Source: a virus (taxonomy: Duplodnaviria; Heunggongvirae; Uroviricota; Caudoviricetes). Taken from it: a stretch of 22,386 bases of DNA. The position numbers were made by a program, and so were the translations under genes. Shown one piece after another: positions 1 to 22,386 of the stretch. The stretch lies in IMG/VR virus record IMGVR_UViG_3300029653_000080; one strand, written 5' to 3'. Under the pieces are notes generated by a model. That model was not told the origin of the DNA. It saw nothing but the letters and a program-made list of their open reading frames with translations, and made no database searches. Numbering within the stretch: position 1 is the stretch's first letter; each line of letters opens with the position of its first letter.

Positions 1-117
1 GAAGGGCATACAAAAATGGAAGCAATACGCTGCCTGAAGCGCTATATCTCACGCGAAGTTTATACATTACTGCGTAATCAAAACAGGCAGCTCAACAGCA
101 TCCCGATAACGGCTTGA
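1..117 (+). CDS. 3' end of a transposase-like ORF (C-terminus resembles the IS110 family), 5' part outside the window
   Basis: Frame-1 translation ...EGHTKMEAIRCLKRYISREVYTLLRNQNRQLNSIPITA*. The EA(I/M)RCLKR(R/Y) motif is recalled from IS110-family C-termini; family assignment is tentative. Confidence 0.35.
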   Translation, partial: EGHTKMEAIRCLKRYISREVYTLLRNQNRQLNSIPITA

Positions 118-124
118 CTCTTAG

Positions 125-442
<318 letters not shown>

Positions 443-450
443 CCACTACA

Positions 451-1374
451 AAACACTGCTGAGATATTCAATTTTCCAGTGCCGGATGTGGCACAAAAGG
501 AGCGGCGCGTGGCAGATCTCGACGATGGTTATACGCGCATTGCAAATGAGTTGCTGGAAGCTGTGATGCTGGCCGGATTAACACAGCACCAGTTTCTGGT
601 CTTCCTGGCTGTCATGCGCAAAACATATGGCTTTAATAAAAGACTGGATTGGGTGAGCAACGAGCAACTTTCCGAATTGACCGGGATATTGCCGCACAAG
701 TGTTCTGCTGCAAAAAGCGTTCTGGTAAAGCGTGGGATTTTTATTCAGAGCGGGCGGAATATCGGCATTAATAATGTGGTCAGTGAATGGTCAACATTAC
801 CCGAATCAGGTAAGAAAAATAAAGTTTACCTGAAAGAGGTAAATTTACCTGAATCAGGTAAGAAAAGTTTACCCAAATCAGGTAAAGGCGTTTACCCGAA
901 TCAGGTAAACACAAAAGACAAACTAACAAAAGACAATATAAAACCTTTTTCGTCCGAGAATTCTGACGAATCCTCTGACCAGCCAGAAAACGATCTTCCT
1001 GTGGTGAAACCGGATGCTGCAATTCAGAGCGGCAGCAAGTGGGGGACAGCAGAAGACCTGATCGCCGCAGAGTGGATGTTTGACATGGTGAAGACCATCG
1101 CGCCATCAGCCAGAAAACCGAATTTGCAGGGTGGGCTAACGATATCCGCCTGATGCGTGAACGTGACGGACGTAACCACCGCGACATGTGTGTACTGTTC
1201 CGCTGGGCATGCCAGGACAACTTTTGGTCTGGTAACGTGCTGAGCCCGGCCAAACTTCGCGACAAGTGGACCCAACTCGAAATCAACCGTAACAAACAAC
1301 AGGCTGGCGTGACAGCCGGAAAACCAAAACTCGACCTGACAAACACTGACTGGATTTACGGGGTGGATTTATGA
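451..1374 (+). pseudogene. O: Replication initiator protein O (lambda O-like), disrupted: start removed by IS insertion and a 1-nt frameshift near 1123-1126
   Basis: Translation from 451 (NTAEIFNF...QKERRVADLDDGY...MRKTYGFNK...) parallels lambda O. After ...ARKPNL the frame changes; the next frame continues with the lambda O C-terminus (...ANDIRLMRERDGRNHRDMCVLFRWACQDNFWSGNVLSPAKLRDKWTQLEINRNKQQAGV...TDWIYGVDL*). Track ORFs 479..1153 and 1153..1374 are the two halves. Confidence 0.85.
797..950. repeat. Lambdoid replication origin inside O: five about 18-bp iterons (TTACC-N8-GGTAA) at about 797, 826, 845, 869 and 892, followed by an AT-rich tract (910-950)
   Basis: Direct repeats ttacccgaatcaggtaag / ttacctgaaagaggtaaa / ttacctgaatcaggtaag / ttacccaaatcaggtaaa / ttacccgaatcaggtaaa, each internally palindromic, then acacaaaagacaaactaacaaaagacaatataaaacc. 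Same architecture as ori-lambda. Confidence 0.8.
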
Positions 1375-2072
1375 AAAACATCGCCGCACAGATGGTTAAC
1401 TTTGACCGTGAGCAGATGCGTCGGATCGCCAACAATATGCCGGAACAGTACGACGAAAAGCCGCAGGTACAACAGGTAGCGCAGATCATCAATGGTGTGT
1501 TCAGCCAGTTACTGGCAACTTTCCCGGCGAGCCTGGCTAACCGGGACCAGAACGAACTGAACGAAATTCGCCGCCAGTGGGTGCTGGCTTTCCGGGAAAA
1601 CGGGATCACCACAATGGAACAGGTTAACGCAGGAATGCGCGTAGCCCGTCGGCAGAATCGACCATTCCTGCCATCACCCGGGCAGTTTGTTGCATGGTGC
1701 CGTGAAGAAGCATCCGTTATTGCCGGACTGCCAAACGCCAGCGAGCTGGTTGATATGGTTTACGAGTATTGCCGGAAGCGTGGCCTGTATCCGGATGCAG
1801 AGTCTTATCCGTGGAAATCAAACGCGCACTACTGGCTGGTTACTAGCCTGTACCAGAATATGCGGGCCAATGCGCTTACTGATACGGAATTACGGCGCAA
1901 GGCTGCCGATGAACTGACTTGTATGACCGCGCGAATTAACCGTGGTGAGGCGATACCTGAACCAGTAAAACAACTTCCTGTCATGGGCGGTAGACCTCTA
2001 AATCGTGTTCAGGCGCTGGCGAAGATCGCAGAAATCAAAGCTAAGTTCGGGCTGAAAGGAGTGATGAAATAG
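1371..2072 (+). CDS. P: Replication protein P (DnaB helicase loader), essentially lambda P
   Basis: 233-aa ORF MKNIAAQMVNFDREQMRRIANNMPEQYDEKPQVQQ...KAKFGLKG, near-identical to lambda P as recalled. Start overlaps the O stop (ATGA), as in lambda. Confidence 0.93.
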   Translation: MKNIAAQMVNFDREQMRRIANNMPEQYDEKPQVQQVAQIINGVFSQLLATFPASLANRDQNELNEIRRQWVLAFRENGITTMEQVNAGMRVARRQNRPFLPSPGQFVAWCREEASVIAGLPNASELVDMVYEYCRKRGLYPDAESYPWKSNAHYWLVTSLYQNMRANALTDTELRRKAADELTCMTARINRGEAIPEPVKQLPVMGGRPLNRVQALAKIAEIKAKFGLKGVMK

Positions 2073-2321
2073 AGCTAAAGTATTAGCTTAAAAATAAAGT
2101 ATACCTAGCGAATATAATCTAGGACTAGTTGTTATGCCCGAAATGATTGATTGCGTGAGTAACAAAGTGTCTCTTCCATTGTTGTGAAATCATTTAGCCA
2201 TAAAGTTTATGCAGAGATTTTATTTTATTTTTGAGTTGATTTTTTTGTAACGATCTGTATATTTCGCGCCTCTTGTCATACCAGTTATTTTTTTCATTAT
2301 ATTCATAACGTTGATTGAACT

Positions 2322-5300
2322 ATGACCACTGTGAATAAAAAGTTAAAAAAAACTGCATCTGGCGCGATTACATGGTCGGTAATTGTTACCCAGATATTAT
2401 CTCCAGTTTCTCTTTCTTTGATCCCAGCAAACAGTTTTGCATCATCTGGTAATAAAGATGTTACGCAAACTTATGCCAGCGATGAGCATGCAAATAAAGT
2501 GGCCTCATTTGCAGCAAGTGCAGGTCAGAGCCTGGCGAATAATAATGCAAGTAGTTTTGCTGTAAATACTTTATCAACTCAGGGGACAAAAGAGGTCGTC
2601 GACTGGTTGCAACAATATGGCAATGCGCGCATCAAGCTTAATGTCGATGATTCTTTTTCCTTGAAGGATTCATCATTCGACTTTTTATATCCATGGCTGG
2701 ATACTCAGGATTATGTGTTATTCAGTCAGACATCACTACATCGTACTGATGACCGAAATCAGACCAATATTGGTTTGGGGATTCGTCATTTCACTCCTGA
2801 TAACGCAATGTTGGGTGCGAATGTTTTTTATGATTACGATTTAAGTCGCAGTCACTCTCGTGCAGGTTTTGGGGTTGAGTACTGGAGGGATTATTTCAGG
2901 CTTGGTGTAAATACCTATTTTGGTCTATCTGACTGGAAGAACAGTCGGGATATTGATGATTATCTGGAAAGACCTGCAAATGGCTGGGATTTTTCTGCTG
3001 AAGGATGGCTACCTGCTTATCCGCAATTAGGGGCATCTATTCAGTTTGAAAAATATTATGGTAAAAATGTCGGGTTATTTGGAAGCGATAACCTTCAGGA
3101 AAACCCTTACGCAGTTACTGGGGGAATTTCTTATACACCAGTTCCTCTGATTAAGTTTTCTGCACAGCATAAGCAAGGACAGAGCAACGTTCACGATACA
3201 ACCTTCGGTGTTGAGTTTAATTATCGCCCGGGCGTTTCCCTGGCTGAACAGCTTAGCAGCGATAATGTTGCAGTTATGCGAGAAGTCCAGAATCGGCGTT
3301 ATGATTTTGTTGAACGAAATAACAACATTGTTCTGGAGTACAAGAAGAAGCATGCACTGAAAATCAGTTTGCCAGAGTCTGTTCAGGGGGAGGGGGAATC
3401 AATCATCCCTGTAACACTGACAATCAACAATGCTAGTGGTGGTATCAAGTCTGTACAGTGGAATGATAGTGCATTCACTGCGGCTGGCGGCAAGATCAGT
3501 GGAAATGGCACATCATGGCAGATCACTTTACCGGCTTATAAAAGCGAAGGTGTAAATTCGTGGAATGTTGGAGCCACAGTCCAGGATAACAGAGGCAATG
3601 TTTCCAACTATGCCGTTATGAATATCAGCGTTAATAATAGTGGTGTCTCGACAGCGGATTCATCTTTTACGCTGGATGGGGATTCGTCTCCGACGATCTC
3701 TGCTGATGGTCAATCCACTTATCCAATAGTATTAAGCCTGAAAGACAGTAACGGTAAGGCATTAACCGGACTGGCTGATGACATTGAAATGTCTGTGGAA
3801 TTTACTGCGGATAGCAATAGTGCTCGACAGCGTGAAACGGTAACTGCTCCGTCATTAGGCGCGGTAGAGGAAATCTCTGCTGGTGTATATCGCTCTGTTC
3901 TGGCTGCTGGTTCGCAGGCTGGGACGGTACGTGTAACTGCAAAAGTTCAGGGAAAAACATTTACTCTCAGTATTAAGCAAACAGCAGCAACAGAACCTGA
4001 TTCTGAGGTCAGTGCTGTTTTAACCGCTGCACCAGCAGAACAGGTAGTTGGTTACAATATCAATCTACAACTGGCAGTGAAGGATTCACAAGGAAATGCA
4101 ATCACTGGTGATAACACTCTGAGCTTTTATGCTCTTAACCAGGCAGAAGGAGTCGAGTTTGGGACTGTAACGGAAAAAGACGGTGTCTATAGCGCGACAG
4201 TAACTTCAAAACGAGCTGGTAAGATTACTATCGGTGTTAAATCTGATAGTCATGATTTCTCAGGTGTTAAGAAAGAAATCACCTTTATTGAGGACCGGCA
4301 GCAGGTTACATTCTCTCAGTTTGAAGCCAGCCAAAATAATGCATTGGCTGATGGAAAACAGAGAAATATGGTAACTGTAAGCCTTGCGGACCGTTTCGGC
4401 AATGTTGTTCCTGGTTATGCTGTCACATTGTCTTTACCAGCAGGGATAACTCAAGTTGGTGGTGAACATGCTGTTTCAACTGACGAAAATGGTAATGCTA
4501 TTTTTGCGTTAATAAGCTCCACTCCGGGGTCTTACGTGATTACAGCTCATGCTGGTTCTCAGATGTCTACTGAGTTAACAGTGACCTTTGCATCAAATAT
4601 GACCGGAGCTTCACTGTCACTGACGCCTGAAAGCAGTAGTTTAATTTCCAATATTCCTGCTAATGGTAAGGATGCAGCGGTATTAGATGTGCAGCTGACA
4701 AATACGAATGCGTCGGTCAATGGGCAAAAGATTCAGCTCATCACCTCATCTGAAGGATTATCTGTACCAACAAATATCGTGACTGATTCAACAGGGCATG
4801 TTTCTGTTCCGCTTACAACGGTGAAAGCTGGTGAGTACACGGTGACTGCACGGGTGACTGACGGTTCCCATAGCGTGGAATCTGGCAGCGTTAAGTTAAC
4901 TTTTGTGCCCGATGTTGCTTCTGCAGAACTTACTATGAGTGTATCAAAACAGGAGATTGTGGCCGATGGCAGTGAAAACGCAACAGTAAACATTCAGTTG
5001 GTTGATGCGAATAACAATGCGTTTACAGGTGAGGTGGATTTAACGATTACACCATCGACGGGAGCATCATTGACCAGTAGTAATCTGCAACTGGATGCTC
5101 ATGGACAGGCAACAACGCAGTTCACTGCATCGAAATCAGGCCAGTACACAATTCAGGCCGAGTATGTTCTGGATGGGAAACGCATAACCGCAAGCCAGAA
5201 TATTGATGCCGTGACGGATGTGAAGGGGGCTGTGTTGGAGATCACATCATCTGCATCTTCGGCTGTAGTGAGCGATACCAACAATCTGGTATTTACGTTA

Positions 5301-5873
5301 CTGTTGAAAAGTAAGTCAGGCGAAGCATTAAGTGGTCGAGCATTGAATGTTAAGACATCTGGGCCGTCTAAATATGGTGCGTTGGTGGTTGATAAAACCA
5401 CAGTAACGACTGATGAGAACGGTCAGGCTACGGTAAGCGTACATGGTCGAACGGTTGGTTCGTATAAATTAACGGCGACCTTAAACGAACTTGGCAGTGA
5501 TGTTAGCGCGGTGAAATCATTCTCCCTGTACGCTGATGACGCAAATGGAGTATTGACTCTAACAAAAGATCCTGGTTATGAGACAAACGATGGCTCTCCA
5601 GTAGGTATTTATGCTCGATTTGTCGATCATTTTGGAAACCCATTATCTGGTACGGTTGAGTTTTCTGCTGGTAGTGAAGATAGTCCAGACTCTCAACGGG
5701 TCAAAATGGAGCCTGCTACAGTAACGTTACACTGGACAGGTAATGCAGCTTCGGAATTCAGCACCTATGAAAGTGGTTATCACTGGATTAAGGCCAAAAT
5801 AACGAATAGCAAAAATACATATGAGAAAACAATAAGGACTTATGTTGTAAAACTACCTGAAAAGGATAGTTAA
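2322..5873 (+). CDS. Inverse autotransporter (invasin/intimin-family, type Ve) adhesin with repeated bacterial Ig-like (Big_1-type) domains; no LysM domain
   Basis: Long N-terminal signal (…SLIPANSFA). The beta-barrel region (DWLQQYGNARIKLNVDDSFSLKDSSFDFLYPWLDTQDYVLFSQ...ERPANGWDFSAEGWLPAYPQLG...NPYAVTGGISYTPVPL...DFVERNNNIVLEYKKK) closely parallels the Yersinia invasin beta-domain. About 8 Ig-like repeats follow. AT-rich codon usage. Confidence 0.85.
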   Translation: MTTVNKKLKKTASGAITWSVIVTQILSPVSLSLIPANSFASSGNKDVTQTYASDEHANKVASFAASAGQSLANNNASSFAVNTLSTQGTKEVVDWLQQYGNARIKLNVDDSFSLKDSSFDFLYPWLDTQDYVLFSQTSLHRTDDRNQTNIGLGIRHFTPDNAMLGANVFYDYDLSRSHSRAGFGVEYWRDYFRLGVNTYFGLSDWKNSRDIDDYLERPANGWDFSAEGWLPAYPQLGASIQFEKYYGKNVGLFGSDNLQENPYAVTGGISYTPVPLIKFSAQHKQGQSNVHDTTFGVEFNYRPGVSLAEQLSSDNVAVMREVQNRRYDFVERNNNIVLEYKKKHALKISLPESVQGEGESIIPVTLTINNASGGIKSVQWNDSAFTAAGGKISGNGTSWQITLPAYKSEGVNSWNVGATVQDNRGNVSNYAVMNISVNNSGVSTADSSFTLDGDSSPTISADGQSTYPIVLSLKDSNGKALTGLADDIEMSVEFTADSNSARQRETVTAPSLGAVEEISAGVYRSVLAAGSQAGTVRVTAKVQGKTFTLSIKQTAATEPDSEVSAVLTAAPAEQVVGYNINLQLAVKDSQGNAITGDNTLSFYALNQAEGVEFGTVTEKDGVYSATVTSKRAGKITIGVKSDSHDFSGVKKEITFIEDRQQVTFSQFEASQNNALADGKQRNMVTVSLADRFGNVVPGYAVTLSLPAGITQVGGEHAVSTDENGNAIFALISSTPGSYVITAHAGSQMSTELTVTFASNMTGASLSLTPESSSLISNIPANGKDAAVLDVQLTNTNASVNGQKIQLITSSEGLSVPTNIVTDSTGHVSVPLTTVKAGEYTVTARVTDGSHSVESGSVKLTFVPDVASAELTMSVSKQEIVADGSENATVNIQLVDANNNAFTGEVDLTITPSTGASLTSSNLQLDAHGQATTQFTASKSGQYTIQAEYVLDGKRITASQNIDAVTDVKGAVLEITSSASSAVVSDTNNLVFTLLLKSKSGEALSGRALNVKTSGPSKYGALVVDKTTVTTDENGQATVSVHGRTVGSYKLTATLNELGSDVSAVKSFSLYADDANGVLTLTKDPGYETNDGSPVGIYARFVDHFGNPLSGTVEFSAGSEDSPDSQRVKMEPATVTLHWTGNAASEFSTYESGYHWIKAKITNSKNTYEKTIRTYVVKLPEKDS

Positions 5874-5885
5874 CAAAATTGAATG

Positions 5886-5912
5886 GGGAGGGCTTAGCCC
5901 TCCCTCTTTTTA
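5886..5912. terminator. Bidirectional intrinsic terminator between the convergent adhesin and esterase genes
   Basis: Perfect 8-bp GC-rich stem gggagggc-tta-gccctccc followed by tcttttt on the plus strand; A-rich on the other side gives a U-rich tract for the minus strand. Confidence 0.7.
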
Positions 5913-6953
5913 CAGGTTAGCGTTTGGGTTTTGTTGTTGGGGAGCTGTTTTTATAGGCGCTCCCAGGTTTTTAGTAAACCACTCAACGACTCTGTTTATA
6001 ATAATTGGCTGATACCATGTCTTATCGCCATGCTCGGCCCCTTCTACCAGCACGTACTCAGCGTTATCGCCGTTCTTCTTCAACATCCTGAATAGTTTGG
6101 CGCTTTGCTCAGGTGAAACCAGAGTGTCTTTGCTACCATGCATAATAAGAAATGGGGGTTTTACTCCTTTCATATGTCCGATTGGACTGGCGTTTAGCGC
6201 TTTTTCTTTTGACGCTGTGATGGGGGCTCCCGCAAAATTTCTGAATGCAGGGCCATTGATCATTAAGGCTTCGGTTACGGCAGGAGAGCGATGAACCTCC
6301 TGCACTGATTCAGGGAACCCCTCGCCAATATTCAACAAGTCAGAAATCCCATAAAGTGTGGCAACTGCCTGAACATCTGAGGATTGCTGAAGAAAGTCAC
6401 CTTTATCAAAGGTTTTGTCACCATTTGTAGTTCCCATCATCTGAGCAAGCCATCCACCGGCAGAGTCACCCAGAACTCCGATTCTTTGAGGATCAATCCC
6501 ATAATTGCTGGCATGCTCTCTCAGGTAACGTATTGCAGCTTTTCCATCCTCAACTGGTGCTGGAAATGTATCAGGAATTGTTCTGTATTCTACAGCGGCC
6601 ACAACAAAACCAGCTTCTGCCAGAGCCATTCTCATTTCAATAAATTTGTCATGTTCAGAAGACATGAATCCGCCGCCGGGATAATAAATAATGGCTGGTT
6701 TTAAATCATTTGTTCGCGGGACAAGAACTGACATGTGAAGCTGTCTGACAGAACGAGTTCCTTTTATCTGGGAATAAACAACATCACCAATGAGATCGAC
6801 TTGGTTTCTGGTCGGTGAAACACTAATGATATCTGCACCCGGGGTGTAACCAGGAAGATTAGTCTGGACAGGTGTTGCACAACTCCCGACCGACATGGCC
6901 ATTGACATACCATACAATAGTGTTGCAGATGATAATATCTTGTTAATTTTCAT
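5910..6953 (-). CDS. Secreted (probably lipoprotein) alpha/beta-hydrolase-fold esterase/lipase, HSL-like (Abhydrolase_3) family
   Basis: Signal peptide MKINKILSSATLLYGMSMAMSVGSC (possible lipobox), oxyanion-hole motif YYPGGGF, nucleophile elbow GDSAGG, C-terminal EGAEHGD histidine. Confidence 0.8.
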   Translation of the reverse strand: MKINKILSSATLLYGMSMAMSVGSCATPVQTNLPGYTPGADIISVSPTRNQVDLIGDVVYSQIKGTRSVRQLHMSVLVPRTNDLKPAIIYYPGGGFMSSEHDKFIEMRMALAEAGFVVAAVEYRTIPDTFPAPVEDGKAAIRYLREHASNYGIDPQRIGVLGDSAGGWLAQMMGTTNGDKTFDKGDFLQQSSDVQAVATLYGISDLLNIGEGFPESVQEVHRSPAVTEALMINGPAFRNFAGAPITASKEKALNASPIGHMKGVKPPFLIMHGSKDTLVSPEQSAKLFRMLKKNGDNAEYVLVEGAEHGDKTWYQPIIINRVVEWFTKNLGAPIKTAPQQQNPNANL

Positions 6954-7400
6954 GTTTTACATGCCTTGACTTATCGGATGAAATTCTCTTACTGAATTTA
7001 ACGGCAGTTTAATAGCCGTACAACTCGTGGTAGCCAGGGAAATATCCCAGTCGTGGTTAAGGTTGTACTTGACGGCTATTATTTCAACAATGCTTAAAGT
7101 GAGAGCTTAAGGTTATGCGTATGTTTTACAGTCCGAGTAGATTCTGACCAATAGCTTCTTTGTATAATTCTGTCAGAAATAAATCTTGGCTTGCATGAAG
7201 TTTGAGACCTTATCTTGTTTGATTATGAATAATCAATTCGCCATAATTGTATCACCGGAGCCTGAACAACTCCGGTGACTTCTGCGCTAAACGGGGACGT
7301 TTATGCGCACACACAATCCAAACTCTCTTCTCCCTTCACAGATGCAGAAATGCACCTGCGTTTTTTTGCATCCAGCGTCTGACCTCTGTGGAGGTGAAGC

Positions 7401-7856
7401 GTGAACCTACCACAAGATGGCATCAAACTGCATCGCGGTAACTTCATCGCTATCGGCCAGCAGATCCAGCCTTATCTGGAGGACGGAAAATGCTTTCGCA
7501 TGGTGCTTAAACCGTGGCGTGAGAAACGCAGTCTTTCCCAGAATGCACTCAGCCATATGTGGTACAGCGAAATCAGTGAATACCTCATCAGCAGGGGGAA
7601 ATCGTTCGCTACCGCAGCATGGGTAAAAGATGCTCTCAAACACACATACCTCGGTTATGAAACCAAGGACCTGGTTGATGTCGTAACCGGCGAAATCACT
7701 ACTATCCAGTCGTTACGCCATACCTCCGATCTTGATACCGGAGAGATGTATGTCTTCCTGTGTAAGGTTGAAGCCTGGGCGATGAATATTGGCTGCCACC
7801 TGACTATTCCGCAGAGCTGCGAGTTCCAGCTGCTGCGCGACAAGCAGGAGGCGTAA
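7401..7856 (+). CDS. ninB: NinB/Orf-family recombination mediator (DLP12 ybcN-like)
   Basis: 151-aa ORF with GTG start and GGAGGTG RBS; position and size fit lambdoid NinB, and the next gene overlaps in the ATGA pattern typical of nin operons. Confidence 0.8.
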
Positions 7857-8026
7857 TGGCTACACCGCTTATTCGTGTCATGAACGGACACATCTACAAA
7901 GTACCAAATCGTCGTAAGCGTAAACCTGAGCTGAAGCCATCCGAAATACCAACACTGCTCGGGTATACCGCCAGCCTGGTTGATAAAAAATGGTTGCGAC
8001 TGGCAGCAAGGAGGAATCATGGCTGA
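7856..8026 (+). CDS. ninE: NinE-like small protein
   Basis: 56-aa [59 protein letters not shown]. Shares the KRKP...Y.A.L.D..WLR pattern of lambda NinE; start overlaps the ninB stop. Below the ORF-track length cutoff. Confidence 0.55.
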   Translation: MATPLIRVMNGHIYKVPNRRKRKPELKPSEIPTLLGYTASLVDKKWLRLAARRNHG

Positions 8027-8309
8027 TTTAAGAAAAGCAGCGCGTGGTCGGGAATGCCAGGTAAGAATCCCTGGCGTATGTAATGGCAATCCTGAAACGT
8101 CAGTACTGGCACATATCCGGCTGGCTGGATTGTGCGGTACCGGTATCAAACCGCCAGACCTGATTGCCACCATTGCATGTTCTGCCTGCCACGACGAAAT
8201 CGACCGTCGCACGCATTTTGTTGACGCTGGATATGCAAAAGAATGCGCGCTGGAAGGTATGGCGAGAACACAGGTTATCTGGTTGAAAGAGGGGGTTATT
8301 GAGGCGTGA
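8019..8309 (+). CDS. ybcO: YbcO-family protein (DUF1364, putative metal-dependent nuclease)
   Basis: [62 protein letters not shown]...; AAGGAGG RBS before the ATG at 8019. Track ORF 7980..8309 uses an upstream TTG. Confidence 0.7.
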
Positions 8310-8668
8310 ATACCTACAGCATCACATTACCCTGGCCTCCGAGCAATAATCGCTATTACCGCCATAATCGTGGGCGCACGCACGTCAGCGCAGAGGGGCA
8401 GGCATACTGCGATAACGTCGCCCGAATCATTAAAAACGCAATGCTGGATATCGGCTTGGCTATGCCAGTGAAAATCAGCATTGAGTGCCACATGCCGGAT
8501 CGCCGTCGCCGTGACCTTGATAATCTGCAAAAGGCCGCTTTTGACGCACTCACCAAAGCAGGTTTCTGGCTGGATGATGCTCAGGTCGTTGATTACCGCG
8601 TTGTGAAGATGCCCGTTACCAAAGGTGGGAAGCTGGAGCTGACTATCACTGAACTGGGAGATGAATGA
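8306..8668 (+). CDS. rusA: Holliday-junction resolvase RusA
   Basis: 120-aa [37 protein letters not shown]...[31 protein letters not shown], near-identical to E. coli RusA as recalled. Confidence 0.93.
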
Positions 8669-8805
8669 TGTTTGAGTCTTATATGGCAGAGCGTCTTCGC
8701 CGCCGCTGGGTGCGCCTGCGCTTATATCGTTTTCCTGGTTCTGTTTTGACCGATTACCGAATACTGAAGAATTACGCCAAAACCCTGACAGGAGCAGGAG
8801 TATGA
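8665..8805 (+). CDS. ylcG: Small YlcG-like protein (46 aa)
   Basis: [49 protein letters not shown] overlapping the rusA stop, at the position of DLP12 ylcG. Below the ORF-track cutoff. Confidence 0.5.
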
Positions 8806-8890
8806 AGTCAGAGATAACAATCAACTAATACTGTTTTGTTGATTTTTGCTTGTAATTGGCGTTCTGGTCTGATTTTTGTGGAGTAAGTTG

Positions 8891-9274
8891 ATGCGTGATA
8901 TTCAGATGGTTCTTGAGCGTTGGGGAGCGTGGGCGGCTAATAATCATGAAGATGTGACCTGGTCGTCCGTTGCCGCCGGTTTTAAGGGATTAATTCCTTC
9001 AAAAGTAAAATCTCGCCCGCAATGTTGTGACGATGACGCGATGATCATTTGCGGGTGCATGGCCCGTCTGAAAAAGAACAACAGCGATTTACACGATTTA
9101 TTAGTAGATTATTATGTATGTGGTATGACATTCATGTCACTGGCAAGTAAGCATTGCTGCTCGGATGGTTATATCGGGAAAAGGTTACAGAAGGCTGAGG
9201 GCATAATTGAAGGGATGTTAATGGCATTAGATATCCGGTTAGATATGGATATCGTTGCTAATAATTCTAATTGA
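8891..9274 (+). CDS. Q: Late-gene antiterminator Q (phage 82/DLP12 QuuD type)
   Basis: [26 protein letters not shown]...[32 protein letters not shown]... with Cys-rich zinc-binding region; GGAG RBS 7 nt before the ATG at 8891 (track start 8876 is an upstream TTG). Confidence 0.85.
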
Positions 9275-9306
9275 TATGCAATTGTTTACTAAAAGTTATT
9301 AAAAAT

Positions 9307-9324
9307 GGGGCGTGGAAACGCCCC
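9307..9324 (-). terminator. Intrinsic terminator for minus-strand transcripts (porin gene / IpeX-like RNA)
   Basis: ggggcg-tggaaa-cgcccc stem-loop; on the minus strand it is followed by AUUUUUAAUAA. Confidence 0.55.
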
Positions 9325-9411
9325 CAAAATAAAGGGTAATATATAACAGAAGGTTTATATAGTAAGAAGCAAGGTAGTGCTTCTAAAGGAAGTGGCTTGA
9401 GGGCTCCACTT

Positions 9412-9451
9412 ATATGTTGCGGAGGCAAAGCCTCCCGCAACATATCTTTTT
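9412..9451 (+). terminator. Plus-strand intrinsic terminator downstream of Q (tR'-like); also a stabilising hairpin at the 3' end of the porin mRNA
   Basis: 15/16-bp stem atatgttgcggaggc-aaa-gcctcccgcaacatat followed by cttttt on the plus strand. Confidence 0.5.
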
Positions 9452-9462
9452 CGTAAGTCAGA

Positions 9463-10545
9463 TTAGAACTGATAAACCAGACCTACAGCGACGATGTCGT
9501 CGGTATCAATACCAGCTGTTTTGGTAAACTTACTATCGTCAATTAAGTTGATTTTGTAATCAACAAAAGTGGACATGTTTTTATTAAAGTAGTAAGTAGC
9601 ACCGACATCGACATACTTGACTAAGTCTCGGTCACCATGAACACCAAGGTCTTTACCTTTTGACTGAAGGTAAGCAACAGATGGTCGCAGACCGAAGTCA
9701 AACTGATATTGTGCTACTGCTTCAAAGTTTTGTGCTTTGTTTGCAATATGGTTATTACCAAAAACGGTCATATTCTGAGTTTCAGAATATGTGGTAGCCA
9801 GATAGATATTGTTCGCATCATATTTCAGGCCTGCAGCCCATACTTCCGCATTTTTGCCGGAGGCATTGAATTTGCTCTTACCATAGGCGACCTGACCGTC
9901 AGTGCGATCTGATTTAGCATAGGTTGCACCCACGCCGAATCCTTCATACTCATAAGTAGTGGAGAAACCGAAACCATCACCATTGGCTTCAGTTACGTCA
10001 GTGCGGTCATTTTTACCCTGATACTGAGCAGCAAAGTTCAGGCCATCGACCAGACCAAAGAAGTCGTTGTTACGATAAGTTGCAACACCAGTAGTGCGAC
10101 CAGTCATGAACACATCTGTTTGGGTCCAGGTATCACCACCGAATTCTGGCAGGACGTCAGTCCACGCACCGATGTCGTATGCTACACCGTAGTTACGGCC
10201 GTAATCGATTGAGCCGTAATCACCAAATTTCAGGCCTGCAAATGCAAGACGGGTTTTGTCTTTGGAAGAACCTTGAGATTCAGCACGGTTGCCTTTGAAT
10301 TCATATTCCCACTGACCGAAACCAGTCAGTTGATCGTTGATTTGGGTTTCACCTTTGAAGCCAAGACGGGCATAAGTAGTATCACCATCATCTGCATCAT
10401 TAGAGGAGAAGTAGTGCTTGGCATTAACTTTCCCGTATAGATCCAGCTTGTTACTGTCTTTATTATAAATTTCAGCTGCCTGAGCAGACATCGCCATCAG
10501 TACTGATGCAGCTACAGCAGAAATTGCCACTGTTAATTTTTTCAT
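9463..10545 (-). CDS. nmpC: Outer-membrane general porin, OmpC/OmpF/NmpC family, apparently intact
   Basis: 360-aa ORF with signal peptide [23 protein letters not shown] and C-terminal ...VAVGLVYQF; matches E. coli NmpC as recalled, at the same Q-to-holin position as in DLP12. Confidence 0.9.
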
Positions 10546-10972
10546 TGTACGCCCTTTTTTTTGAACTATTATTAAAAAATGATGTCACTGCGCGATAAAT
10601 ATTCATCTAATCAATGCGATTATTTCAAGATGTAAGTTTTAGTTTCTCATTTAATTTGTGAAGTAGATCTCTATTTTTATCTGAACCTTTTCTATCTAAT
10701 CCTATTCATGGCTCTTGTTTGAACGAAAATAAATCTATTAGCTAATTTATATTAATGGCACTTATTTATAAGCGCTCTATAATTCTTTAACTTAATTTAA
10801 ACAAACTAAAAATAACATCGGAAATTATTCGTTGGTTATTTGTTGAAGTTTTCTTATGTATTTGTGGTGGTGTTTTGAACACTCGGTGGCATTCTCACAA
10901 ATATCATTTAGTAGTTTACGTACGTAAAAAATTGGTTATGCTGTTAAGAGTGGTTACTTCGTCACACAGCTT

Positions 10973-11006
10973 AAACCCGCCGTCGAGCGGGTTTTTCCAT
11001 TTTTTG
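10973..11006 (+). terminator. Plus-strand intrinsic terminator in the 590-bp AT-rich region between the porin promoter and the holin gene
   Basis: aaacccgc-cgtcga-gcgggttt followed by ttccattttttg. Confidence 0.6.
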
Positions 11007-11134
11007 AGTCTCGATATTAGCTGATAACCCAATACCTGAGTTATTCACTGACTCCGAATCTGTTACGTTTCTGCCTTTATTGCGATACGTAGTATCCCCT
11101 TAATTTACACCCGCTTTGTCTGCGAGGTGGGGTT

Positions 11135-11350
11135 ATGAAATCCATGGATAAGTTAACAACGGGTGTCGCCTATGGCACCTCAGCAGGTAGTGCCGGGTAC
11201 TGGTTTTTACAGTTGCTCGATAAAGTCACGCCCTCACAGTGGGCGGCAATAGGTGTGCTGGGTAGTCTGGTATTTGGCTTGCTGACGTATCTGACAAACC
11301 TTTATTTCAAGATTAAAGAAGATAAGCGTAAGGCTGCGAGAGGTGAATAA
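11135..11350 (+). CDS. S: Class II pinholin, S21 type
   Basis: 71-aa [74 protein letters not shown], closely matching phage 21 S; stop overlaps the next ATG (TAATG). Confidence 0.9.
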
Positions 11351-14300
11351 TGTCGCCATCATTACGCAAGGCTATTGCTGCTGCTATTGGTGGTGGGGCT
11401 GTTGCCATAGCGTCTGTGCTCATCACTGGTCCGAGTGGTGACGATGGCCTGGAAGGTGTCAGCTACATACCATACAAAGATATTGTTGGTGTATGGACTG
11501 TATGTCACGGGCATACAGGAAAAGACATCATGCTCGGTAAAACGTATAAAGGCAGCAGTAAGGGGCATACCCCGCGCGAAGCGAAGGACAACCTGAAATC
11601 CACGCAGTTACTGAGTGTGATCGATGCCATCAGCGAAGGGCCGATTGAAGGTCCGGTGGATGGGTTAAAAAGCGTGCTACTGAACAGTACGCCGGTGCTG
11701 GACACTGAGGGGAATACCAATATCTCCGGTGTCACGGTGGTGTTCCGGGCAGGTGAGCAGGAGCAGACTCCGCCGGAGGGGTTTGAATCCTCCGGCTCCG
11801 AGACGGTGCTGGGTACGGAAGTGAAATACGACACGCCGATCACCCGCACCATCACGTCGGCAAACATCGACCGTCTGCGTTTTACCTTCGGTGTGCAGGC
11901 ACTGGTGGAAACCACTTCAAAGGGTGACCGGAATCCGTCGGAAGTTCGCCTGCTGGTTCAGATACAGCGTAACGGTGGCTGGGTGACGGAAAAAGACATC
12001 ACCATTAAGGGCAAAACCACCTCGCAGTATCTGGCCTCGGTGGTGGTGGATAACCTGCCTCCGCGCCCGTTCAATATCCGGATGCGCAGGATGACACCGG
12101 ACAGCACCACAGACCAGCTGCAGAACAAAACGCTCTGGTCGTCATACACCGAAATCATCGATATGAAACAGTGCTACCCGAACACGGCACTGGTCGGTGT
12201 GCAGGTGGACTCGGAGCAGTTCGGCAGTCAGCAGGTGAGTCGTAATTATCATCTGCGCGGGCGCATTCTGCAGGTGCCGTCGAACTATAACCCGCAGACG
12301 CGACAATACAGCGGTATCTGGGACGGAACGTTAAAACCGGCATACAGCAACAACATGGCCTGGTGTCTGTGGGATATGCTGACCCATCCGCGCTACGGCA
12401 TGGGGAAACGTCTTGGTGCGGCGGATGTGGACAAATGGGCGCTGTATGTCATCGGCCAGAATTGCGACCAGTCGGTGCCGGATGGTTTTGGTGGCACGGA
12501 GCCGCGCATCACCTGTAATGCCTGGCTGACCACACAGCGTAAGGCGTGGGATGTTCTCAGTGATTTCTGCTCGGCGATGCGCTGTATGCCGGTATGGAAC
12601 GGGCAGACGCTGACGTTCGTGCAGGACCGGCCGTCGGATAAGGTGTGGACCTATAACCGCAGTAATGTGGTGATGCCGGATGATGGCGCGCCGTTCCGCT
12701 ACAGTTTCAGCGCCCTGAAGGACCGCCATAATGCCGTTGAGGTGAACTGGATTGACCCGGATAACGGCTGGGAGACGGCGACAGAGCTTGTGGAGGACAC
12801 GCAGGCCATTGCCCGTTACGGTCGTAACGTCACGAAGATGGATGCCTTTGGCTGTACCAGTCGGGGGCAGGCACACCGAGCCGGGCTGTGGCTGATTAAA
12901 ACGGAACTGCTGGAAACGCAGACCGTGGATTTCAGCGTGGGCGCAGAAGGGCTTCGCCATGTGCCGGGCGATGTTATTGAAATCTGCGATGATGACTATG
13001 CGGGTATCAGCATCGGCGGGCGCGTGCTGGCGGTGAACAGCCAGACCCGGACGCTGACGCTCGACCGTGAAATCACTCTGCCATCCTCCGGTACCACGCT
13101 GATAAGCCTGGTTGACGGAAGCGGCAATCCGGTCAGCGTGGAGGTCCAGTCCGTCACCGACGGCGTGAAGGTAAAAGTGAGCCGGGTTCCTGACGGCGTT
13201 GCCGGATACAGCGTGTGGGGGCTGAAGTTGCCGACGTTGCGCCAGCGCCTGTTCCGCTGCGTGAGTATCCGTGAGAACGATGACGGCACGTATGCCATCA
13301 CTGCCGTGCAGCATGTACCGGAAAAAGAGGCCATCGTGGATAACGGGGCGCACTTTGACGGCGACCAGAGCGGCACGGTGAATGGTGTCACGCCGCCAGC
13401 GGTGCAGCACCTGACTGCCGAAGTCACCGCAGACAGCGGGGAATATCAGGTGCTGGCGCGCTGGGACACGCCGAAGGTGGTGAAGGGGGTGAGCTTTATG
13501 CTTCGCCTGACCGTGGCAGCGGATGACGGCAGTGAGCGGCTGGTCAGCACGGCCCGGACGACGGAAACCACATACCGCTTCACGCAACTGGCGCTGGGGC
13601 GGTACACGCTGACAGTCCGGGCGGTAAATGCGTGGGGGCAGCAGGGCGATCCGGCGTCGGTATCGTTCCGGATTGCCGCACCGGCAGCACCGTCGAGGAT
13701 TGATCTGACGCCGGGCTATTTTCAGATAACCGCCACGCCGCATCTTGCCGTTTATGACCCGACGGTACAGTTTGAATTCTGGTTCTCGGAAAAGCGGATT
13801 ACCGATATCAGGCAGGTTGAAACCACAGCCCGCTATCTTGGCACGGCGCTGTACTGGATAGCTGCCAGTATCAATATTAAGCCGGGCCATGATTATTATT
13901 TTTATATCCGCAGTGTGAATACTGTTGGCAAATCGGCATTCGTGGAGGCTGTCGGTCAGGCGAGCGATGATGCTTCCGGCTATCTGGATTTTTTCAAAGG
14001 CCAGATAACTGAATCCCATCTCGGCAAGGAGCTGCTGGAAAAAGTCGAGCTGACGGAGGATAACGCCAGCAAACTGGAGGAGTTTTCGAAAGAGTGGAAA
14101 GACGCCAACGATAAATGGAATGCCATGTGGGGCGTCAAAATTGAGCAGACCGAAGACGGCAGGCATTATGTCGCGGGTATTGGCCTCAGCATGGAGGATA
14201 CGGAGGAAGGCAAACTGAGCCAGTTCCTGGTTGCCGCTAACCGTATCGCGTTTATTGACCCGGCAAACGGGAATGAAACGCCGATGTTTGTGGCGCAGGG

Positions 14301-14940
14301 CAACCAGATATTCATGAACGAAGTGTTCCTGAAGTATCTGACGGCTCCCACCATTACCAGCGGCGGCAATCCGCCGGTATTTTCCCTGACACCGGACGGG
14401 CGGTTGACGGCGAAAAATGCCGATATCAGCGGTAACGTGAATGCGAACTCAGGGACGCTCAATAATGTCACGATTAACCAGAACTGTCGGATTCTGGGAA
14501 AACTGTCTGCCAACCAGATTGAAGGTGATATTGTCAAAACGGTGGGAAAAGCCTTTCCGAGAAATGGCAGTTATGCCAGCGGTACAATAACGGTCACTGT
14601 GTACGATGACCAGGCTTTTGACCGTCAGATAGTAATCCCACCCGTTCTGTTTCGCGGTGGTAAGCATGAAAACTTCAACAGCAACAACCAACAGTCATAC
14701 TGGTATTCAACCTGTAAGCTGCAGGTACTGAAGAACGGACAGGAAATCTTTCAGCAACCCGCGACGGATGTCAGCAGGGTATTTTCATCCGTCATTGATA
14801 TGCCAGCGGGACACGGCCATGTCACCCTGACTTTCAATGTTTCTTCATATGGTGCAAATAACTGGACGCCAACGACCAGTATCAGCGACCTTCTTGTTGT
14901 CGTGATGAAGAAATCAACAGCCGGTATCAGTATCAGTTGA
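11350..14940 (+). CDS. Chimeric ORF: N-terminal 66 codons of a SAR endolysin (R21 type, signal-anchor-release domain) fused in frame to codon 3 onward of a lambda-type tail-tip host-specificity protein J; C-terminal about 150 aa of J diverge from lambda
   Basis: Residues 1-66 [66 protein letters not shown] match the R21 SAR endolysin N-terminus. From [36 protein letters not shown]... the sequence is near-identical to lambda J from residue 3. Junction at about nt 11547. Confidence 0.85.
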
Positions 14941-17347: not shown

Positions 17348-17788
17348 ATGGATATAAGCCCCTTACTTCATGCACTTTGTGCTGTGGCTGCGCAGATACT
17401 GGTTGGTCTTTTTACCGGAAACTGGGCTTACGGAGCGATAGCCGGTTGTACGTTCTTCATTGCGCGTGAACATACCCAGGCAGAATATCGCTGGATTGAA
17501 ATGTTCGGGCATGGCAAGCGAATGAATATGCCGTGGTGGGGCGGTTTTGATCCGCGTGCTTGGGATGTGGCAAGCCTGATGGATTTTGCTGTGCCGGTGG
17601 TGGCGTGTCTGCTGGTCTGGCTGTTGGTTAATCGTGGGCGAAAAAAGGTGAGCTGTATATGCAACGGAGGAAGAAACCCCGTTGCTGGAAGCCAGGAAAA
17701 AGTATCGGGTGTTGCTGTCCTCGGATGTTGTGCTAATTGGGTGATAACAGATCCTGTGTATGGGAGTTTCCCTTTTTGCGTGCGTTGA
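17348..17788 (+). CDS. Hypothetical inner-membrane protein (about 3 predicted TM helices); the C-terminal about 45 codons are doubtful and overlap the sitD 3' end
   Basis: Strong RBS AAGGAGG 6 nt before the ATG. Hydrophobic segments LLHALCAVAAQILVGLFTG, WAYGAIAGCTFFIA, ASLMDFAVPVVACLLVWLLV, then a basic NRGRKK; the Cys-rich tail overlaps convergent sitD. Confidence 0.5.
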   Translation: MDISPLLHALCAVAAQILVGLFTGNWAYGAIAGCTFFIAREHTQAEYRWIEMFGHGKRMNMPWWGGFDPRAWDVASLMDFAVPVVACLLVWLLVNRGRKKVSCICNGGRNPVAGSQEKVSGVAVLGCCANWVITDPVYGSFPFCVR

Positions 17789-18590
17789 TGCTGGTAACGG
17801 CAAACGTCATGATGAACAAAACCGCGAATAAGACGACAATCGTCGGAGCTGGTGCGCTGTCGATAAAAAAGGACAACCAGACACCAGTCATTGACACTAT
17901 TACCGATATGCCAGTCGCCAGTAGGAGCGCAATATGAAAGCGTTGTGTCAGGAGTACCGCAATGGCGCCAGGCGCAATGAGCAGAGAAATGGAGAGAATG
18001 ATACCTACCGCTTTCAGCGTCGCCACAATGGTCAGAGAGACCATGCACAGCAGCCCATAATGCAGCCATCTCGTATGCAAACCGCTTACCTGCGCCTGTT
18101 GATAATCAAAGCTGAACAGCAAAAAATCCCGCCATTTTACGCTAATAACAAGTGTAACCAGCCCGGCAATAATCATCGTCTGGATTATATCGCCGATGGT
18201 TATCCCGAGCATGTCGCCGAAAAGAATATGGTCAAGATGTACGTCTGGTTTGACTGCAATATACAAAATCAGACCTGCGGCAAACATGCCAGAAAAAACA
18301 ATCCCCATCACTGTATCTTGCTTGATTCGGCTGTTGTCTTTCAGGTATCCCGTCGCCACCGCGCAGAATACTCCGGCGACGAATGCCCCTGTAGCCAAAG
18401 GTAACCCCAGAATCCAGGCAAGCACGATGCCAGGAAAAACCGCATGACTCATCGTGTCACCCATCAGTGCCCAGCCTTTCAGGACCAGAAAGACCGACAG
18501 CAGCGCACAGGGTATGGAAACTACCAGTGAAATCAGCAGTGCGTGACTCATAAAGGTGAACTGCAGTGGCTCCAGTAATAATGCCATCAT
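17733..18590 (-). CDS. sitD: Mn/Fe ABC transporter permease SitD
   Basis: 285-aa polytopic permease; last gene of the four-gene minus-strand operon, start overlapping the sitC stop. Confidence 0.9.
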   Translation of the reverse strand: MMALLLEPLQFTFMSHALLISLVVSIPCALLSVFLVLKGWALMGDTMSHAVFPGIVLAWILGLPLATGAFVAGVFCAVATGYLKDNSRIKQDTVMGIVFSGMFAAGLILYIAVKPDVHLDHILFGDMLGITIGDIIQTMIIAGLVTLVISVKWRDFLLFSFDYQQAQVSGLHTRWLHYGLLCMVSLTIVATLKAVGIILSISLLIAPGAIAVLLTQRFHIALLLATGISVIVSMTGVWLSFFIDSAPAPTIVVLFAVLFIMTFAVTSINARKKGNSHTQDLLSPN

Positions 18591-19444
18591 GAGCGATCCT
18601 CCAGCGCCTTATGCGCACGCCGACGATTTGCCAAAAGCCCATGGGTGGGCGCAAAGACAAATGCTAAAAGAAACAGCAGTGTCTGCGCCACCACGATGAT
18701 TCCACCTGTCGCGCCGTCCAGAAAGTAACTGACCCACGCGCCGAGGAAACTGGTTACACTGCCAATAGTTACAGCAATCATGAGCAGGCGGGGAAAACGA
18801 TCGGTTAACAACCATGCTGTTGCTCCGGGAGTCACCACCAGACAGATCACCAGAAAGGCACCAACCGTTTGCAGCGCCGCAACGGTCGAAACCGACAGCA
18901 GGGTGAAGAAGAGGAGTTTTAATCTGCCCGGATGCAATCCAATAGCACGGGCGTGATTCTCGTCGAAAAAGGTCACCATAAGATCTTTCCATTTGAAAAA
19001 AAGCACGATGATCGAGAGAATGCCAATGATAGTGAGTTGCAGGATATCCGCCGGATCGATTGCCAGAATATTGCCCAGGACGATGGTCTGAATGTTCACA
19101 GATGTCGGGTTCAATGACACCATAAACAGCCCCAGGCCAAAAAAGGACGAGAAGATCAGGCCGATGATGGCATCTTCTTTTAAGCGGGTGCGTTGGTTAA
19201 GAAACAGCATGCTGCCCGCAGCCAGTCCGCCGGAAAAGAAGGCTCCCAGAGAAAACGGAAGCCCCAGCATATATGCCCCCGCAACACCCGGGACAATAGA
19301 GTGCGACAACGCATCGCCAATCAGCGACCAGCCTTTTAGCATCAGATAGCATGACAGGAAAGCGCAGAGACCGCCGACCATCGCCGAGACCCACATCGCA
19401 TTGAGCATATATTCATAGCTGAAGGGTTCCAGTAGCACGTTCAT
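18587..19444 (-). CDS. sitC: Mn/Fe ABC transporter permease SitC
   Basis: 285-aa permease paralogous to SitD; start and stop overlap neighbours by 4 nt. Confidence 0.9.
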
Positions 19445-20268
19445 CTTTCTTCCCTCTGCACCGCTGACGGTCGATGAGCCACAAAAGGGCGTTCATCGTC
19501 AGTAATAATGCTTTCTTCCGAGCCGTTAAGTGTGACATGGCGCAGTACGCCGCTAAAAGCCAGCTCCAGGTTCTCGGCTGTAAAAGTGGTGTCTGTCGGC
19601 CCGCTTGCCAGGACGGTGCCTTTGACCATGACCGTATAATCGCAAAATGTCGTGACGGATCCGAGATTGTGCGTTGAGACAAGCATCGTTTTGCCTTCCG
19701 CGCGTAACTCCCTCAACAGGCTGATGATTTTGGCTTCGGTTTTCACATCAACGCCAGTAAAAGGTTCATCCAGCAGGATCACATCACCCTGCTGTGCAAT
19801 CGCTCTCGCCAGAAAGACGCGTTTCTTTTGTCCACCGGAAAGCTCGCCGATTTGTCGATGGCGAAAATTCACCATATCGACACGTTCCAGCGCATCGGTG
19901 ACAATTTGACGATCCCTCTTTTTGGCGATACGCAACATACCCATATGCCCATAGCGGCCCATCATCACCACATCTTCCACCAGTACAGGAAATGACCAGT
20001 CAACCTCTTCTGACTGAGGGACGTAGGCAACCAGGTTTTTCTGTAACGCCTGTCGCGTGGGAATACCCAGAACAGATATCTTTCCGCTGGTCAGACGCAC
20101 AAATCCCATAATCGCTTTAAACAACGTCGATTTTCCGGAACCGTTTACCCCAACCAGAGCGGCAATAGATCCACTTGGTACTGTGAAGGATGCATCGCGC
20201 AGTGCTGTGTGCCCGTTACGCCAGGTGACAGCAACATCATTAACGACAATGCCTGCAGATTGCATCAT
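19441..20268 (-). CDS. sitB: Mn/Fe ABC transporter ATP-binding protein SitB
   Basis: Walker [13 protein letters not shown] signature LSGGQKKR, Walker B ILLDEP. Confidence 0.92.
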
Positions 20269-22315: not shown

Positions 22316-22386
22316 TGCACAGAAAACCCCCAGCTAGGCTGGGGGTTCCGGAAAGCTTTCAGCTTTGAGCCAGTTATTAAAACCCC

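Follow-up and report, generated by a model that had tools for sequence, protein, structure and literature searches.

Yersinia invasin (InvA) and the intimin of enteropathogenic and enterohaemorrhagic Escherichia coli (EPEC/EHEC) share one layout, in which a signal peptide is followed by a 12-stranded barrel with its linker and then by C-terminal Big_1 immunoglobulin (Ig)-like domains. Both are inverse autotransporters (IATs, type Ve). In the available text of Goh et al. 2019 (PMC6714894), seven E. coli groups of this family are described, namely intimin, FdeC, YeeJ and IatA to IatD. According to the same text, IatB, IatC and IatD occur at the surface and drive biofilm formation when (over-)expressed, and none of the IATs that it treats was detectably expressed in a wild-type strain. 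Lambdoid phages carry morons such as bor/iss, the nmpC-type porin and NanS-p, which have a low GC content and differ in presence among near-identical phages. In the K-12 prophage DLP12, ren-emrE-ylcJ-ybcK-ybcL-ybcM lies between replication gene P and ylcH. BD-FAE, an esterase of known structure (PDB 6TKX/6XYC), acts as a feruloyl esterase and as an acetyl-xylan esterase (Hameleers et al. 2021, PMC8165983). Here we analyzed the viral record IMGVR_UViG_3300029653_000080, a stretch of 22,386 nucleotides called the window below, in which a low-GC insert next to gene P encodes a large IAT and, on the opposite strand, a smaller esterase. This insert consists of two ordinary, separately mobile cargo cassettes, both common in E. 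coli. They are probably neighbours through modular recombination, and nothing indicates that they cooperate. What is modestly new is the adhesin, an unnamed, phage-borne and repeat-variable lineage within a well-known family.

The window IAT has the layout of invasin and intimin and, as in invasin, no LysM domain was detected in it by Pfam. It differs from both in having eight Ig-like domains, more than either, in the absence of a detectable C-type-lectin-like tip (D5 of invasin, D3 of intimin) and in its location on a lambdoid prophage, not on the locus of enterocyte effacement or elsewhere on the chromosome. With the named E. coli IATs (FdeC, YeeJ, IatA/YchO, IatB/SinH, IatC and IatD) it shares protein family and species. 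FdeC and IatB are without LysM and lectin cap, neither of which was detected in the window IAT, and the passenger of several named E. coli IATs also varies in length among strains. These proteins are encoded at fixed chromosomal sites, whereas the window IAT is phage-borne. The esterase resembles BD-FAE and the Bacteroides eggerthii GH43-CE protein (6MLY) in a PF20434 match across nearly the whole profile and in fold. It differs in being 24–26% identical to them, phage-borne, equipped with a lipobox signal peptide and outside any polysaccharide utilisation locus. The insert occupies the same position as the DLP12 cargo (emrE, ybcK, ybcL, ybcM), between P/ren and ylcH-ybcN, and resembles the lambdoid morons in its low GC and its presence or absence among near-identical phages. 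It differs from both in gene content, and an adhesin gene of 3.6–4.6 kb is much larger than classic morons.

Two cassettes in one lambdoid slot

The counts given here and below refer to 5,426 complete E. coli genomes. Of these, 681 carry the esterase gene and 561 the IAT gene, copies interrupted by insertion sequences (IS) included. Junction-specific searches, used for the arrangements, found both genes adjacent in 438 genomes, the esterase alone in 172 and the IAT alone in 53. Four fillings of the slot were seen. Besides that of DLP12, several chromosomes and eight isolated phages have P-ren-emrE-hyp-ybcK-esterase-ylcH-ybcN, without IAT. The window and intact-looking prophages at icd in sequence type 131 (ST131) have IAT plus esterase, and an intact-looking prophage of strain 144 has P-IAT-ylcH-ybcN, without esterase. 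The eight esterase-only phages are lambdoid, measure 47–50 kb and include 4A7, 4C10, D2, 1W, 3W, PhiR47_2 and Perceval. None of 50,697 deposited phage genomes encodes the IAT.

The homology breakpoints are at 2061, 5906/5912 and 7218/7259. The esterase-only phages are homologous up to 2061 and then, without interruption, from 5906 to 11548. Homology with the IAT-only prophage ends at 5912 and picks up again at 7259. The two cassettes are thus separated by a sharp break at 5906–5912. The initial annotation had described a single two-gene moron, but each cassette is found without the other, the esterase in the 172 genomes and eight phages and the IAT in the 53 genomes. Unrelated distributions of the two genes had been named beforehand as the observation that would refute this, and the distributions found here are of that kind. 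Nor is the cargo unusual for its position, as had been thought, since this is the known cargo slot of DLP12 and IAT plus esterase fills it in 438 genomes, intact-looking ST131 prophages included. A functional pairing of adhesin and esterase had also been proposed. Outside the Escherichia phage slot, an IAT neighbour is absent from nine contexts of esterase homologues (Dickeya, Pantoea, Klebsiella, Kluyvera and several metagenomic contigs among them), and the esterase is absent beside the closest non-Escherichia IAT homologue looked up, from Enterobacter (46% identical). In these ten contexts the two genes are never together, and the proposed pairing finds no support.

A G+C-rich hairpin with a 9-bp stem lies between the two stop codons. 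The terminator scan calls it on both strands, in agreement with the terminator postulated there, with a T-tail that is good on the plus strand and poor on the minus strand. The calculated folding energy is −18.1 kcal/mol on the plus strand (z −3.1) and −16.7 kcal/mol on the minus strand (z −2.75). This hairpin moves with the IAT cassette: it is retained in the IAT-only prophages, and the esterase-only phages have a different one. The differences between the esterase of the window and the esterase-only alleles concentrate in the last 37 residues (positions 311–346; window 5910–6050). Such clustering at the 3' end of the gene, beside the 5906 junction, is consistent with a recombination scar.

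The left end of the insert is at about 2062, within the final three codons of P, and the C-terminus of P reads GLKGVMK in the window versus GLKGASV in ren-carrying phages. With the junction at this place, it is the incoming cassette that supplies these codons of P. The right end had been placed at 7400. The insert stops at about 7217, and conserved lambdoid sequence begins at 7218. About 2,800 of the genomes match the query, mostly over 7218–7400 alone, and K-12 DLP12 and phage 82 are among the matches. In phage 82 the counterpart of 7218–7400 is annotated as orf33 with promoter signals. The block had been noted as lower in GC than its neighbours, and this was confirmed: 2073–7217 has 43.0% GC versus 53.0% for P and 48.7% for the segment from ybcN to quuD. 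The GC content at third codon positions (GC3) is 0.358 for the IAT gene and 0.385 for the esterase gene versus 0.577 for P and 0.612 for ybcN. The block is foreign, low-GC cargo in the P-to-nin slot. It has the features by which morons are recognized, being present or absent between conserved phage genes, deviant in GC3 and provided with a hairpin terminator, in a slot with four architectures among near-identical phages. A search for transposition-type direct or inverted repeats flanking the block returned only short, chance-level matches. Recombination between phages would be the simplest account of cassette exchange. The Rfam scan of the whole window found nothing in or near the insert. One further copy of the same chromosomal prophage segment is carried by NZ_AP026904.1 (‘plasmid’ pMY504-2), a 237-kb linear record. 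A plasmid location was discarded, this one inspected record being probably a mis-assigned chromosome fragment or an assembly artefact.

The inverse autotransporter and the esterase

The large protein matches Pfam IAT_beta (PF11924) over residues 57–334 with 335.6 bits, for a cut-off of 22.3, and its N-terminal barrel is followed by a C-terminal Ig passenger. It is a type Ve inverse autotransporter, as annotated from the start. A long signal peptide (about residues 1–40, probably cleaved after SFA) and a short periplasmic segment precede the barrel and linker (97–341), and eight Ig-like domains occupy residues 342–1183. The barrel residues 97–341 align end to end with the invasin barrel (PDB 4E1T; E 6e-75, 50.0% identity) and with the intimin barrel (PDB 4E1S; E 5e-64, 45.9% identity). 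The eight segments of about 100 residues that follow agree with the roughly eight repeats counted earlier: six have significant Big_1/Invasin_D3 matches, the first matches intimin D00 (PDB 6TQD, E 9e-10) and the last, residues 1071–1183, has a weak Big_1 match only (E 0.05). For this last segment, no lectin or Intimin_C match was found in Pfam and no sequence match in the PDB at E≤10; its weak matches land on internal Ig repeats of other IATs. A single-sequence AlphaFold model of residues 966–1183 had a predicted local distance difference test (pLDDT) score of 35.6, too low to judge a lectin-like versus an Ig-like tip. All close relatives being near-identical E. coli alleles, this model lacked a diverse alignment. 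The description as ‘invasin-type’ therefore suits the barrel. It does not extend to the rest of the protein, where neither LysM nor a lectin-like tip was detected, and the NCBIfam cut-offs for invasin and intimin are widely missed.

The NCBIfam scores of the IAT are 404 for IatC (cut-off 2400), 346 for intimin (NF033627; 1400), 317 for SinH/IatB (999), 285.5 for Inv (NF040980; 710) and 269 for YchO/IatA (508), and it is also far under the cut-offs for Ilp and YrIlm. Its identity to the IatD cluster is 32%. Among 1.84 billion cluster representatives searched, none of those listed outside its own cluster exceeded 46% identity, and 50% identity to IatD, FdeC or YeeJ was not exceeded among the listed representatives. 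The solved FdeC fragment gave no match to the IAT in the PDB search. Judged by these comparisons, the IAT stands outside every named inverse-autotransporter family. Matching phage protein families exist in PHROGs, where their function is unassigned. The genome SaT040, which belongs to the set of Goh et al. (PMC6714894), carries the window's IAT gene, which the available text of that paper does not name.

The alleles of the IAT contain zero, one, two, three or four copies of a perfect 119-residue repeat, an Ig-domain unit, and are accordingly 1064, 1183, 1302, 1421 or 1540 residues long. The window has the one-copy allele, and the commonest is the two-copy allele of 1302 residues. The proteins of this repeat series are P0001, P0004, P0011 and P0241, the last being the 1064-residue allele. 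Tandem Repeats Finder reported no repeat in the IAT gene of the window; the polymorphism is visible only across alleles. Against a 94%-identical allele, the ratio of nonsynonymous to synonymous substitutions (dN/dS) is 0.15 for the gene as a whole and 0.02 for its barrel part. These low values mean that the gene evolves as a working gene. In several genomes it is interrupted by IS elements (IS3-family, ISEc23, ISEc52) in otherwise identical prophages (H1–H7, H26, H31, H107), which suggests repeated loss of IAT function in some lineages.

Close relatives of the IAT occur in Escherichia only, and ST131 is among the lineages that carry the gene. The E. albertii protein shares 80% of the N-terminal 237 residues and is encoded on the core chromosome just downstream of ydcSTUV-patD. 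The genome contig scan with the IAT returned just this E. albertii N-terminal fragment, located at a contig end, and a contaminant-like 357-bp fragment labelled Moraxella; no full-length relative from another species was obtained in that scan. Alignment with E. albertii and strain 144 revealed an element of about 47 nucleotides (2255–2301), in the AT-rich region 5' of the IAT gene, that is common to the E. albertii chromosomal locus (L007, 7945–7990). It contains a sigma-70-like pair, TTGTCA at 2273–2278 and CATTAT at 2295–2300, with 9 of 12 matches, and the IAT promoter could thus be at 2273–2300. The phage cassette may derive from the E. albertii locus or have given rise to it. The 249 bases directly 5' of the IAT gene have 30.1% GC. 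Given this composition, silencing of AT-rich promoter regions by H-NS is plausible, and it would fit the silence of other E. coli IATs in culture.

The smaller protein was annotated as a secreted esterase, and this is well founded: it has a BD-FAE match, an invariant Ser-Asp-His triad and a signal peptide, and is predicted to be an exported alpha/beta-hydrolase esterase. The match to Pfam BD-FAE (PF20434) scores 153.9 bits for a cut-off of 26.8 and covers profile positions 7–214 of 215; Abhydrolase_3 is also matched. The GDSAG motif was correctly recognized, whereas HGGG is absent, the oxyanion motif being Y-P-G-G-G at residues 91–95. Ser164, Asp276, His308 and PGGG are invariant in 121 homologues, and the Ala of GDSAG is replaced by Ser in two of them. 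All NCBIfam scores for hormone-sensitive lipase (HSL) subfamilies are far under their cut-offs. Membership of HSL family IV was rejected on these scores and on the missing HGGG, and the identities Aes, PaeX and AxeA1 were rejected on scores well below the cut-offs. The signal peptide is present as annotated, with the correction that it ends in a lipobox (VGS-C25), so that the protein is a predicted lipoprotein. The sequence GMSMAMSVGS-C25 fits the PROSITE PS51257-type pattern. The five alleles read from E. coli and phages all have Cys25; a single variant in the databases carries Tyr25, and in the majority of distant homologues the signal peptide is of the ordinary kind. The alignment-based AlphaFold model is of good quality (pLDDT 82, predicted TM-score 0.83). 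Its nearest folds by Foldseek are the goat-rumen Lip_vut4 (6NKF, 32% identity), Thermogutta Est2, BD-FAE (6TKX/6XYC) and the Bacteroides GH43-CE protein (6MLY), with E values of about 1e-17 for 6TKX, 6XYC and 6MLY. The dN/dS of the esterase gene is 0.18. The region 5' of the gene contains no convincing open reading frame (ORF), and the esterase promoter is presumed to lie within it.

Plant-associated and enteric Enterobacterales widely encode homologues of the esterase, at 63–80% identity. Of the three closest non-phage homologues (75–79% identity), two are encoded directly after a phenolic-acid decarboxylase gene, and the Dickeya homologue is near a gene for a cellulase of glycoside hydrolase family 5 (GH5). 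As the decarboxylase acts on acids that such an esterase would release, this neighbourhood suggests a feruloyl-type esterase. Our best guess is a hydroxycinnamoyl or acetyl carbohydrate esterase. Literature matches for ‘esterase’ concerned the unrelated NanS-p family and were set aside.

Possible roles of the two proteins

We consider it probable that the insert represents two independent lysogenic-conversion cassettes, one for an adhesin and one for an esterase, in a swapped lambdoid slot between P and ylcH-ybcN. The first cassette (about 2062–5905) would be made up of the AT-rich regulatory region, the IAT gene and the hairpin terminator. By analogy with intimin and invasin, its product would be exported by Sec by means of the long signal peptide, the 12-stranded barrel would be inserted in the outer membrane by the beta-barrel assembly machinery, and the chain of eight Ig-like domains would be threaded outward to form a rod on the cell surface. 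FdeC and IatB to IatD point to adhesion or biofilm formation as the most likely role of this rod. Gain or loss of the 119-residue Ig unit would alter its length. The second cassette (5906–7217, opposite strand) would encode a BD-FAE carbohydrate esterase with the triad Ser164-Asp276-His308, predicted to be a membrane-anchored lipoprotein. This enzyme would most likely remove ester-bound feruloyl or acetyl groups from gut substrates of plant origin. A bolder version, which we regard as possible but doubtful, is that the IAT is an eighth E. coli lineage, restricted to Escherichia, spread by lambdoid phages to pandemic clones of extraintestinal pathogenic E. coli (ExPEC), ST131 among them, tuned in its reach by the repeats and a real colonisation or biofilm factor, and that the esterase acts separately on dietary hydroxycinnamate esters.

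Several observations weigh against these proposals. The genome set is dominated by a few clones, which limits the argument from distribution, and about two thirds of the carriers have both genes together, so that on distribution alone a weak functional link stays possible. The IS-interrupted copies mean that the IAT is dispensable in at least some lineages. Promoter-like sites upstream of its gene are no more frequent than in shuffled sequence. The tip domain is without recognizable relative, and a binding function is assumed from membership in the family. As to the esterase, the decarboxylase neighbour is found in just two of nine contexts, and the closest homologue, P0123 (80% identical), lies beside a serine protease autotransporter (SPATE) and PerC; no link to plant esters was seen there or in the contexts other than these two and that of Dickeya. 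Literature searches with the protein accessions and with keywords on prophage, lambdoid and ST131 adhesins returned no paper describing the IAT gene or the esterase gene.

The two genes could instead form one functional module, in which the esterase processes the adhesin or modifies a surface glycan or lipid for it. They are adjacent and convergent on one hairpin in 438 genomes, both products are predicted to be exported to the cell envelope, and their GC3 values are similarly low (0.36 and 0.39). We nevertheless find this very unlikely in view of the 172 genomes and eight phages with the esterase only and the 53 genomes with the IAT only, of the sharp break at 5906–5912 together with the different terminator of the esterase-only phages, and of the absence of an IAT from the nine esterase contexts outside the slot and of an esterase beside the 46%-identical non-Escherichia IAT. 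The esterase taken alone could also be a deacetylase of host or self glycans (O-acetylated sialic acids, O-antigen or peptidoglycan), a functional analogue of NanS-p of Shiga toxin (Stx) prophages. Pathogenic E. coli commonly carry sialate O-acetylesterases on prophages (bioRxiv 10.64898/2026.05.13.724894), BD-FAE has acetyl esterase activity too, the carriers are mostly human ExPEC lineages, and the SPATE protease and PerC beside the 80%-identical homologue form a virulence-type context. Such a role appears unlikely. The family differs from that of NanS (PF20434 versus PF03629), the scores are far under the Aes, PaeX and AxeA1 cut-offs, and plant phenolic esters are indicated by the neighbouring genes of close homologues, for phenolic-acid decarboxylase and cellulase.

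That the IAT serves the phage, by masking outer-membrane receptors against superinfection or by clumping lysogens, is the least probable of the readings considered. The gene is lambdoid-borne alongside other envelope cargo (a porin here, Iss/Bor in relatives) and belongs to PHROGs families of unassigned function. However, adhesion or biofilm formation is the role of the characterized members of the IAT family, the core chromosome of E. albertii has, outside any phage, a related gene that shares the upstream element, and the IAT is missing from all of the 50,697 deposited phage genomes. Both genes could finally be silent baggage, kept by linkage in a decaying prophage and unexpressed owing to H-NS or to the lack of a promoter. 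The prophage shows extensive decay (IS elements, a frameshifted O gene, a lysozyme::J fusion), the upstream DNA has 30% GC, the IAT gene carries IS insertions in several genomes, and the IATs treated in the available text of Goh et al. were not detectably expressed in a wild-type strain (PMC6714894). This we judge improbable, because neither ORF is disrupted and purifying selection acts on both (dN/dS 0.15 and 0.18; 0.02 in the barrel), the same genes are found in intact-looking prophages and in viable phages, and the regulatory element is conserved across species. Two independent cassettes thus remain our preferred reading.

If functional, the adhesin adds a phage-transmissible member to the IAT repertoire of E. 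coli, present in about one in ten complete genomes, ST131 included. SinH and FdeC have been pursued as ExPEC vaccine antigens, and a phage-delivered IAT would likewise be a possible vaccine antigen. The five-step repeat polymorphism provides a simple marker and would be a testable means of varying surface reach beyond capsule and O-antigen. The esterase would exemplify a metabolic cargo gene, for plant phenolic esters, on viable lambdoid phages. The locus illustrates interchangeable cassettes in one phage slot, where adjacency does not imply joint function. No concept is changed by this, as it is ordinary phage mosaicism.

The prophage and its other genes

The window derives from a lambda-like prophage, now defective, at the icd site of an E. 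coli chromosome. A sequence identical to the window is found in many complete E. coli chromosomes. In strain MCJCHV-1, the identical stretch is part of a defective prophage that adjoins icd according to the RefSeq annotation. In this prophage the integrase gene is frameshifted, IS30, IS3 and ISEc21 are in place of the immunity region, and sitABCD is at the far end. The repressor, N and the pR region are lost. The early-right operon is therefore without pR/N drive, and the IAT and esterase genes would each need their own promoter. The gene map proposed initially (P, the 1183-residue ORF and, on the opposite strand, the 347-residue ORF) was recovered with the ORF list and Pfam. The gene on the right flank had been labelled ninB. 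It is ybcN, and its product scores 23.2 bits against Pfam NinB, slightly short of the cut-off of 23.8. To the right of the insert follow the lambdoid genes ybcN, ninE, ybcO, rusA, ylcG and quuD and then a porin gene and a holin gene. Table 1 gives the coordinates.

Table 1. Positions of the cassettes, their parts and other features in the window
Feature	Position	Strand	Details
ISEc21 and IS3 ends	1-465		IS fragments replace the immunity and early-left regions
Replication gene O	479-1153 and 1153-1374		Split by frameshift
Replication gene P	1371-2072	+	Pfam Phage_lambda_P, 207 bits; left flank of the insert
AT-rich region 5' of the IAT gene	2062-2321	+	30.1% GC (2073-2321)
Inverse autotransporter gene	2322-5873	+	1183 aa; Pfam IAT_beta and Big_1/Invasin_D3 repeats
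Ig-domain repeat unit, single copy	3642-3998	+	357 bp (119 aa); allele alignment; self-identity at offset 119 of 100%
G+C-rich hairpin, 9-bp stem	5885-5905	both	GGGGAGGGC-TTA-GCCCTCCCT, then CTTTTT on the + strand
Esterase gene	5910-6953	-	347 aa, BD-FAE family; PGGG 92-95, GDSAG 162-166 (Ser164), Asp276, His308, lipobox Cys25
Region 5' of the esterase gene	6954-7217	-	38.3% GC; right end of the cassette
Conserved lambdoid segment, outside the insert	7218-7400	+	33-aa ylcH/orf33-like ORF 7303-7404; conserved hairpin about 7252-7276
ybcN	7401-7856	+	DNA base-flipping protein, positional counterpart of ninB; RefSeq annotation of the identical region; right flank
OmpC/NmpC-type porin gene	9463-10545	-	GC 43.6%, GC3 0.39
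Upstream region of the porin gene	10546-11134		33% GC
Lysozyme::J fusion	11350-14940		1196 aa; Phage_lysozyme domain residues 34-83, J domains residues 150-1196
sitABCD	17733-21182	-	Iron/manganese transporter genes
STnc490 (Hfq-binding small RNA)	22325-22386		Partial match to Rfam RF01405, 65.9 bits, clipped by the window end

The porin gene, between Q and the holin gene, is a second low-GC cargo gene, and the same OmpC/NmpC-type porin is also found in the viable phage 4A7. The ORF annotated as tail-tip protein J is in fact an in-frame lysozyme::J fusion, the first 66 or so codons of which come from rrrD. Homology to intact phages stops within it, at 11548. This fusion means that a single deletion took out Rz, the terminase, the head genes and most tail genes. 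The sitABCD genes belong to the same icd prophage remnant and lie past truncated tail-fibre genes.

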